Source: a virus. From it: a DNA stretch of 5,062 bases. Position 1 is the first letter of the stretch. Every line of letters starts with the position of its first letter. Below the pieces are notes generated by a model that did not search any database, was not told the origin of the DNA, and saw nothing but the letters and a program-made list of their open reading frames with translations. The DNA is taken from positions 1 through 5,062 of IMG/VR virus record IMGVR_UViG_3300045988_002830; one strand, 5' to 3'. Shown here piece by piece: positions 1 through 5,062 of the stretch. The position numbers and the translations under genes are program-made.

Positions 1-99
1 ACGCACATCGGGGTGTCACCGGAACCAGTTACATCAAGTAAGTAACTGGTTCCGGACCTTCCCCGTGCGAACATCGCTGATATACATAGAAAAAAAAAC
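1..99. repeat. Terminal redundancy copy 1 (identical to 4964..5062); circularisation artefact of a circular genome
   Basis: Direct by-eye comparison: acgcacatcggggtgtcacc...tacatagaaaaaaaaac is present at both ends, including the identical A9 run followed by c. Confidence 0.95.
2..69. other. Long imperfect palindrome / cruciform-capable stem-loop in the intergenic region; candidate origin-of-replication or packaging signal (present twice in the window because of the terminal redundancy, second copy 4965..5032)
   Basis: Perfect 14-bp inverted repeat ccggaaccagttac (19..32) / gtaactggttccgg (42..55) around a 9-nt loop atcaagtaa. It is extended by outer pairing cgggg (9..13) / ccccg (61..65) and cgcac (2..6) / gtgcg (65..69). 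It is not adjacent to a U-run in the right orientation on either strand, so it is not a simple terminator. Confidence 0.7.
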
Positions 100-124
100 C
101 ATTTTACCGACGTGGGTAAAATGG
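90..124 (-). terminator. Rho-independent terminator for the minus-strand (gene-sense) transcripts downstream of VP3
   Basis: Perfect 10-bp stem ccattttacc (99..108) / ggtaaaatgg (115..124) with 6-nt loop gacgtg. On the minus strand the stem is followed immediately by T9 (complement of a90..a98). It lies 44 nt after the VP3 stop. On the plus strand the same stem is preceded by A9 and followed only by TTTG. Confidence 0.6.
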
Positions 125-167
125 TTTGAGAGGGATGGAAACCATCACATGTATTTGTGATTAGTAC

Positions 168-2430: not shown

Positions 2431-3051
2431 TCATTTCGCAAGATGCGCAGCACCAACAGCGGAATTCGTCACCGGCGCTGTGGAATTAAATGGATTTATC
2501 AAATTCATCCACTGGCCAAAAGACCAAGCACCTTTGTGGTCCTTCATGTAATCAAAAACCATTTTTTGCTTCTCAGAAGCAATAGCAGAATTCTGAGTCA
2601 TGAATTTCGCTTGCTTTAAATTCTCTTCTTGAATCTTATTAGCAATCTCTTGACCTTTAGTCTGCGACCACATTAGATTTGAAGAAGAATCAGCAGCTAC
2701 AGACTGCGCACGCTTCAAACCTGCATCAGCTTGCAGAGCAGAATTCTGAACATAAGTTTGATCTTTCAAAGCATCTTTCAAACTCTTCTCAGAACGTTGC
2801 GTATCAGTGCGCGCACCAGCCTCCATAGCGCCGGCAATATCAGGAGGAACGATCACAGGAGCGTTACCAGAAGCGCCTTGACCACCGGCAGAAAGAATCG
2901 GATTGAGACCTGCTTTTCTCAAATCTTCAACTTCCCACTGATGACGATTTTTTATCACTTCTTTCTGATGCTTCCAACCAAAATATGCAGACATAGCAGA
3001 ACTGGACAAATTAGCAGCACCACCTATCGCTTCAGCCCAAGGAAATCCCAT
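2431..3051 (-). CDS. VP2: Minor capsid / DNA pilot protein VP2 (206 aa)
   Basis: ATG at 3051..3049 preceded by AGGAcggtgatATG (SD AGGA, 7-nt spacer). Position immediately downstream of VP1 is as in gokushoviruses. Contains the VP2-typical DLRKAGLNPIL(S/A)GG motif plus a Gly/Ala-rich segment and Gln/Ala-rich low complexity. Size is in the VP2 range. Confidence 0.8.
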   Translation of the reverse strand: MGFPWAEAIGGAANLSSSAMSAYFGWKHQKEVIKNRHQWEVEDLRKAGLNPILSAGGQGASGNAPVIVPPDIAGAMEAGARTDTQRSEKSLKDALKDQTYVQNSALQADAGLKRAQSVAADSSSNLMWSQTKGQEIANKIQEENLKQAKFMTQNSAIASEKQKMVFDYMKDHKGAWSFGQWMNLINPFNSTAPVTNSAVGAAHLAK

Positions 3052-4789: not shown

Positions 4790-4907
4790 GTACTTATCCA
4801 ACAGCAATAAATAAAAAAGCGACCAGTTCAAAAAGTCCTCTCATTGAACCGGTCGCCTCGCGGTCCTAAAGCAAAGGCTCCAAAAGCTTTAACACCGTAT
4901 AACAAAG

Positions 4908-4935: not shown

Positions 4936-4963
4936 ACATCCGAGCTGTGCGTTGGGTACCCGC

Positions 4964-5062
4964 ACGCACATCGGGGTGTCACCGGAACCAGTTACATCAA
5001 GTAAGTAACTGGTTCCGGACCTTCCCCGTGCGAACATCGCTGATATACATAGAAAAAAAAAC
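4964..5062. repeat. Terminal redundancy copy 2 (identical to 1..99), includes second copy of the palindromic hairpin (4982..5018)
   Basis: Exact 99-nt match to the window start. Confidence 0.95.

Follow-up and report, generated by a model that had tools for sequence, protein, structure and literature searches.

The window analysed here, a stretch of DNA of 5,062 nucleotides, begins and ends with the same sequence, as a whole-window repeat comparison showed positions 1-99 to be 100% identical to positions 4964-5062. This exact terminal redundancy of 99 nt identifies the window as a circular genome of 4963 nt carrying an assembly overlap. The nearest GenBank records are human-associated gokushoviruses with 81-85% nucleotide identity. 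Gokushoviruses are among the most abundant ssDNA phages in gut, marine, and intracellular-bacterial settings. Every real gene is located on the minus strand of the window, namely those for the major capsid protein VP1 (3125-4791/4831; Pfam Phage_F, 1.6e-191), VP2 (2431-3051), the small Arg-rich, J-like protein ORF8 (2206-2430), VP4 (980-1897), VP5 (693-983), and the scaffold VP3 (168-641). Based on Pfam and sequence motifs, VP4 is a HUH rolling-circle Rep, which is presumed to act on the hairpin described below. The packaged strand of the Microviridae is the coding-sense strand, and the viral strand is therefore the reverse complement of the window.

The VP3 stop and the VP1 ATG delimit the largest non-coding region of the genome (~339 nt). 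The initial annotation took it for the single intergenic region, which is not the case, since further non-coding gaps separate VP1 from VP2, ORF8 from VP4, and VP5 from VP3. Between the VP3 stop and the VP1 ATG, the region contains, in this order, the VP3 terminator, the hairpin, a conserved promoter-like block, and a leader hairpin. The hairpin lies between the VP3 terminator (127-96, minus strand) and the VP1 upstream region, as initially annotated. The VP3 terminator was called by a terminator scan as an intrinsic terminator with a 13-bp stem and a T-run (96-127, minus strand). It is found immediately upstream of the hairpin on the viral strand and bounds the transcription unit.

Several other features were observed in the genome. 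In comparison with close relatives (L001-L064), the VP3 terminator (window 87-127, minus strand) exists in two unrelated sequence versions at one position. The version AAACCATTTTACC..GGTAAAATGGTTT is present in this genome, L035, and L056, and most relatives contain GATCGCCCGCTTGCGGCGATC; judged by sequence, this swap looks like a cassette-like replacement. The VP1 leader includes a 13-bp hairpin, GCGACCGGTTCAA...TTGAACTGGTCGC, followed by TTTTTT (4813-4856, minus strand). This terminator- or attenuator-like structure is situated between the promoter-like block and the VP1 ATG (4791), and relatives keep a stem and T-run in the VP1 leader with differing stem sequences. The block itself, TTGTGGTATATGCTTTG (4880-4900, minus strand), lies upstream of VP1 and is invariant in 43 relatives. 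It resembles an extended -10 element (TGnTATAT), and a sigma-70 scan made no call there. Elsewhere, a GC-rich inverted repeat, GCGGCCGCG...CGCGGCCGC (677-722), overlaps the 3' end of VP5 and forms the second strongest fold of the genome (-16 kcal/mol). A terminator-like hairpin with a T-run is located between VP5 and VP3 (655-633, minus strand).

The core of the hairpin (19-55, minus strand) is a perfect 14-bp inverted repeat (19-32/42-55) enclosing a 9-nt loop (33-41), exactly as initially described. On the viral strand, the 5' arm (55-42) reads CCGGAACCAGTTAC, the loop TTACTTGAT, and the 3' arm (32-19) GTAACTGGTTCCGG. Owing to the 99-nt redundancy the hairpin is seen again at 4982-5018 (minus strand), which does not represent a second copy. 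A TGACAC box (13-18, minus strand) at the 3' base of the stem is a candidate Rep binding ("bind") site. A lineage-specific outer flank comes next (2-12, minus strand; CCCCG..GTGCG on the viral strand), for which folding predicts pairing with 61-69. Its partner is the outer 5' flank (56-69, minus strand), which reads CGCACGGGGAAGGT on the viral strand.

Folding of positions 1-75 as ssDNA yielded -24.4 kcal/mol for the viral strand and -24.6 kcal/mol for the window strand, with z-scores of -7.5 and -8.2, respectively, and none of 200 shuffles was as stable. In a 70-nt sliding fold of the viral strand, where the genome averages -6.5 (sd 3.1) and the next best structure reaches -16.0, the hairpin scored -24.3, which confirms its initial description as the strongest secondary structure in the genome. 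No match for the hairpin was found in Rfam. A function as an intrinsic terminator was rejected, in agreement with the initial annotation, because no T-run follows the hairpin on either strand and the terminator scan calls only the neighbouring, separate VP3 terminator hairpin (127-96, minus strand).

The composite stem of roughly 24 bp that had been proposed stands in part. The predicted fold does contain nine outer pairs (GGGG/CCCC and CGCAC/GTGCG, with G65 in common), giving a total of about 23 bp, but the outer pairs do not covary. Among 43 distinct close relatives the outer flanks show the uncompensated changes CCCC>CTCC and GTGCG>GCGCA, and the composite stem was consequently rejected as a conserved feature. 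In distant relatives, the outer flanks are unrelated. The outer 2-12/61-69 pairing is accordingly regarded as a thermodynamic prediction only. In most close relatives the 5' flank is GCGCACGGGTACACA, which lengthens the core stem to 16 bp. Furthermore, the hairpin of close relatives (L001-L064) is flanked by a direct repeat, with GCGCACGGGTAC upstream and CG(T/C)(G/A)CGGGTAC downstream, equivalent to window positions ~56-75 and 4940-4963. The repeat, perfect in L003, L017, L042, L059, and L063, may function in the manner of iterons. The window has CGCACGGGGAAGGT as an altered form of the upstream copy.

The hairpin sits at the centre of the contig break of the window. A minimum of eight related IMG/VR contigs (L008, L009, L014, L018, L027, L032, L048, and L054) are broken likewise, the motif occurring both at position 59 and once more close to the end. 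This shared break seems to reflect the assembly graph breaking at the palindrome and not a biological feature.

The viral-strand loop TTACTTGAT includes ACTTGAT, which in phiX174 forms the core of the site cleaved by the gene-A protein, CAACTTG^ATATT. The initial annotation had named the loop as atcaagtaa, which is the non-viral strand. As the genes lie on the minus strand, the relevant loop is TTACTTGAT, and an oligonucleotide containing atcaagtaa would present the wrong strand for nicking. In the phiX174 record, the viral-strand origin is annotated at A4306 within CAACTTG^ATATTAATAACACTATAGACCAC, and G4 (GQ153923) and alpha3 contain the same 30-mer with two spacer changes. Compared over the decamer, the loop and the phiX174 site agree at 7 of 10 nt (TTACTTGATG and CAACTTGATA). 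For a 9-nt loop read on one specified strand, a particular 7-mer would occur by chance with a probability of approximately 2e-4. Both ACTTGAT and the hexamer CTTGAT occur only once in the genome when both strands are considered. CTTGATA is also present in the rolling-circle origin of pC194 (PMC7072734). By analogy with phiX174, the predicted VP4 cut in ACTTG^AT separates the G at window position 35 from the A at 34 (minus strand). The predicted VP4 substrate element would be GGTCCGGAACCAGTTACTTACTTGATGTAACTGGTTCCGGTGACAC, or GGTCCGGAACCAGTTACTTACTTGATGTAACTGGTTCCGGTGACACCCC as viral-strand ssDNA. Counter-selection of extra viral-strand ACTTGAT copies was also considered as an argument; in relatives, however, such additional copies occur at about the same frequency on either strand, and the argument was therefore not used.

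The Rep itself also points to phiX174. VP4 matches Pfam REP_ORF2-G2P (1e-24) and, weakly, Phage_GPA, and BLASTP aligns it with phiX A over the HUH region at 1e-7. It possesses all three motifs of this Rep class, FLTLTY, HYHAIIF, and Y179-V-A-R-Y183-VTKK, the latter two having the phiX A counterparts HFHAVHF and Y343-V-A-K-Y347-VNKK; both proteins thus possess a two-tyrosine Y-x-x-x-Y centre. The Reps of Bullavirinae and Gokushovirinae have been reported to be monophyletic (PMC6668415).

The hairpin is conserved across gokushoviruses. All six GenBank relatives keep it, two of them with a compensated change from C:G to A:T. The element is present in about 75 IMG/VR relatives. Among 80 IMG/VR loci chosen by Rep similarity only, it was found in all close relatives with a complete contig. 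In distant relatives, whose Reps are 41-52% identical, ACTTGAT is located in a hairpin loop in 19 of 22 cases. One-base loop variants within a hairpin occur in L071 (TCTTGAT) and L080 (ACTAGAT); L066 possesses the 5' arm and ACTTGAT, and its sequence past CTTGAT differs near the end of a short contig. The stem sequences of distant genomes are entirely different from each other, yet complementary. The type members of the three classical genera were included: Chp2 presents the loop TCTACTTGAT in a 14-bp stem (CTAGCGTATAACAG-tctacttgat-CTGTTATACGCTAG), and phiMH2K and SpV4 contain TACTTGTT variants in stems of 10-11 bp. In the latter two (phiMH2K, L089, 3300-3340; SpV4, L090, 515-550), the loop is TACTTGTT(G/A)TA instead of TACTTGAT, and the boxes are TCACAG in phiMH2K and TGACGA in SpV4. 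On the level of sequence, this suggests a co-variation of Rep and origin between the TACTTGAT and TACTTGTT lineages.

The initial annotation had named covariation of the stem in relatives as a test, and such covariation was observed. As MAFFT misplaced the gaps in the 5' arm of the divergent hairpins, a covariance-model alignment was used in its stead. It shows double-sided compensatory changes in 14 of 16 stem pairs. In total, 93.4% of the cells are paired, compared with 76.3% in shuffles, and none of 500 shuffles reached any observed measure. Sliding the partner columns by 1-3 positions lowers the pairing to 25-34%. The covariance-model alignment includes minus-strand matches of the palindrome, and base counts were redone on 33 distinct viral-strand rows. 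In these, each position of the loop A-C-T-T-G-A-T is identical in 32-33 of 33.

A scan of IMG/VR with the pattern TACTTGATRTA-N11-12-TGACAC, in which the 5' arm is unspecified, retrieved at least 120 contigs, almost all of them 4.0-6.4 kb in length. Among the matches listed, gokushovirus VP1 and VP4 are encoded at 116 of 119 loci. The three loci without gokushovirus genes also have no stem, and are thus chance matches. A perfectly complementary 5' arm of at least 6 bp was found at 115 of the 119 listed loci. Over these 119 loci the 5' arm averages 9.7 bp, compared with 3.1 bp for a random upstream control (95th percentile 5), and comprises 81 distinct sequences. Of the 116 gokushovirus genomes among the matches listed, 112 carry the motif on the coding strand. 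Throughout the listed matches the element is non-coding and lies a median of 130 nt past VP3, irrespective of gene order. The latter is VP1-VP2-ORF8-VP4-VP5-VP3 in the genome described here and VP1-VP2-VP3-ORF8-VP4-VP5 in Chp2 and most others.

Besides the loop, the TGACAC box is the second conserved part of the element. Measured from CTTGAT, its start is exactly 14 nt downstream in some 20 divergent genomes; in two genomes the distance is 15 nt. Its bases are identical in 28-31 of 33 distinct relatives at each position, with Rep identities ranging from 41 to 97%. A bipartite origin scheme, consisting of a nick and a bind site, is known for phiX174 and pT181, and the fixed CTTGAT-N14-TGACAC spacing agrees with this nick-plus-bind scheme (PMC5714925). 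The box would accordingly be the Rep binding site. Bullavirinae origins contain AGACCAC at an equal distance from the nick core, with GAC alone being common to both. TGACAC and the phiX GACCAC match in only 3-4 nt, for which the chance at a fixed position is about 1 in 64. In some distant relatives (L068, L069, L070, L075, and L084), a further small hairpin, GGTGAC-N4-GTCACC, directly adjoins the main one on its 3' side and incorporates the TGAC box. This second hairpin covaries, reading GGTGG..CCACC in L075 and GGTGGTC..GACCACC in L084.

Taken together, the hairpin is in all likelihood the viral-strand (double-strand) rolling-circle origin and VP4 nick site of this gokushovirus and of the Gokushovirinae generally, as far as can be judged from sequence comparison. 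This assignment is based on an invariant, strand-specific loop identical to an established Rep cleavage core, a stem that covaries freely, the fixed spacing of a further invariant box, a VP4 catalytic centre nearly identical to that of phiX A, and the uniqueness of the motif in the genome. The initial suggestion of a Rep (VP4) nicking origin thereby gains support from the ACTTGAT loop, its single occurrence, and its conservation across the subfamily. In the proposed mechanism, the inverted repeat would extrude or breathe in the supercoiled replicative form, rendering the loop TTACTTGAT single-stranded. VP4 would dock on the TGACAC box, cut the viral strand at the predicted bond, ACTTG^AT, and become linked to the 5' phosphate. 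A host polymerase would then extend the 3' OH. After one round, the second tyrosine would cut the regenerated hairpin, and the displaced strand would be ligated into a circle. By analogy with phiX174, the Rep-origin complex is probably also used by the procapsid for packaging. Some observations speak against this assignment. The architecture differs from that of phiX174, whose origin is located within gene A and forms no hairpin, and the loop agrees with the phiX decamer at only 7 of 10 positions. The four genomes with an inverted element, described below, and the short match between TGACAC and the phiX GACCAC are further points against it.

A conserved loop and a covarying stem on the packaged strand are also expected of a complementary-strand origin. 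If the hairpin served exclusively as such a minus-strand origin, a host primosome, primase, or RNA polymerase would prime the conversion to the replicative form there, as modelled by the phiX174 n' site, the G4 ori(-) hairpins, and plasmid sso elements, and VP4 would nick elsewhere. The hairpin has the appropriate features, being intergenic and exposing a conserved loop on the packaged strand, and no other candidate for a minus-strand origin was identified in this genome. Reekeekee- and roodoodoo-microviruses contain intergenic hairpins beside Rep with an identical loop and compensatory stem substitutions, which the authors tentatively tied to minus-strand initiation (PMC9865509). Nevertheless, this explanation appears unlikely. 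The invariant loop is the Rep cleavage core of phiX and pC194, a coincidence of about 2e-4; a host-factor site would not be expected to be identical across Chlamydia, human-gut, and marine phages; and the genome offers VP4 no second CTTGAT. It is possible that the hairpin has a dual role as both viral-strand and complementary-strand origin. Covariation of the stem fits an RNA structure equally well, and a hairpin placed between the VP3 terminator and the VP1 upstream region could act at the level of RNA or transcription at the edge of the transcription unit, for instance by stabilising 3' ends, as a site for RNase III, or as an attenuator. This is considered very improbable, as the hairpin is downstream of a strong intrinsic terminator and hence probably little transcribed, has neither a T-run nor an Rfam match, is inverted relative to the genes in four genomes, and displays a loop that matches a DNA nick site.

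The initial annotation had also offered a packaging element as a separate alternative. A single-strand signal dedicated to packaging or to recognition by the capsid, acting independently of Rep nicking, could account for the hairpin being the strongest structure on the packaged strand and for its subfamily-wide conservation. The conserved bases, however, match a Rep substrate and not a capsid motif, and the position of the element is not tied to VP1, as it stays by VP3, upstream of ORF8/VP4. Moreover, the packaging substrate of phiX174 is the origin-Rep complex itself, and we know of no separate pac site in Microviridae. For these reasons a separate packaging signal is disfavoured and seems very unlikely. 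A recombination site for lysogeny (attP or a dif-like XerCD target), as described for enterobacterial gokushovirus prophages, was taken into account as well. The element is palindromic and non-coding, and some gokushoviruses are known as prophages (PMC10707117). Yet such a site is extremely improbable here: the window contains no 28-bp dif-like motif with up to 3 mismatches allowed, a scan of 185,579 species-representative genomes detected no integrated relative, and the element also occurs in the strictly lytic Chp2 and SpV4. The sole match in the 185,579 genomes was a free 4.8-kb contig, which itself carries the element.

In four genomes (L108, L127, L167, and L186) the whole element, comprising the stem, the TACTTGATGTAAC loop, and the GGTGACAC box, is found on the strand opposite to all genes. 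These inverted elements are located in the usual VP3-ORF8 gap, and the four genomes do not form one clade. VP1 of L186 is 76-79% identical to that of L100 and L208, both of which have the normal orientation. The origin model requires antisense packaging in these four phages. A more far-reaching and rather doubtful interpretation is that the element represents the ancestral Microviridae origin. It and the 30-bp phiX174 origin would be homologous throughout, in nick box, 14-15-nt spacer, and GAC box, the 5' arm having been lost in phiX-like phages on absorption into gene A, and the orientation of the element alone would set the displaced and packaged strand. If true, L108, L127, L167, and L186 would be negative-sense microviruses, a polarity not known in the family.

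HUH Rep origins and the CTTGAT nick core are already well known. Full-text literature searches found no description of a gokushovirus origin or of this hairpin, an older remark being possible. As far as these searches show, the new aspect is the presence, subfamily-wide, of a phiX-type nick box on a covarying intergenic hairpin with a TGACAC box. The assignment of a rolling-circle origin to an element of ~45 nt with an exact predicted cleavage bond would make it directly testable with one oligonucleotide and purified VP4. The element would allow thousands of metagenomic microvirus genomes to be oriented and circularly permuted, and their packaged strand to be called, from sequence alone. It would also supply the cis part for gokushovirus phagemids, including those for Chlamydia, for which genetic tools are scarce. 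Furthermore, it would link the unstructured, intragenic origin of phiX174 with the hairpin origins of plasmids and CRESS-DNA viruses.

Compared with known systems, the element shares most with the viral-strand origin of phiX174, G4, and alpha3, a 30-bp sequence inside gene A that is cut by gpA at CAACTTG^ATA. The heptamer ACTTG^AT on the viral strand is common to both, and the Reps are homologous two-tyrosine HUH enzymes, with YVAKYVNKK in phiX A and YVARYVTKK in VP4. In Bullavirinae as well as here, GAC follows CTTGAT by 15 nt, and the bipartite logic of a nick site and a bind site would be common (PMC5714925). The phiX174 origin has no hairpin, is embedded in the Rep coding sequence, and contains an AT-rich spacer, whereas the element described here is intergenic and its spacer is the GC-containing 3' arm of a covarying stem. 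No flanking inverted repeat was found at the origins of phiX, G4, or alpha3. The bases 5' of the core also differ, being TT or CT here and CA in phiX174.

Double-strand origins of the pC194/pUB110 family share the nick-region core CTTGATA, with pC194 reading TTCTTTCTTATCTTGATAATAAGGGTAAC (PMC7072734), but belong to plasmids, depend on another Rep family (Rep_1), and are devoid of the hairpin and TGACAC arrangement. The nick position of pC194 is CTTG^ATA. The origins of pT181-type plasmids and of CRESS-DNA viruses (geminivirus, circovirus) likewise place the nick site in a loop on a stem whose sequence is free to vary, and are likewise intergenic with an adjacent Rep-binding element, for which the box is the candidate here. 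Their Reps are of other lineages, as VP4 belongs to the phiX/G2P-type family. CRESS-DNA viruses are nicked at TAATATT^AC within the nonanucleotide NANTATTAC, compared with the loop TTACTTGAT of the present element, and as regards iterons, only the lineage-specific direct repeat GCGCACGGGTAC was seen here. The primosome assembly site of phiX174 and the G4 ori(-) are also intergenic hairpins on the packaged strand, but host PriA or DnaG recognises them, they have no link to Rep, and no Rep cleavage motif is conserved in them. The hairpins of reekeekee- and roodoodoo-microviruses are likened to the present element by their published description (PMC9865509).
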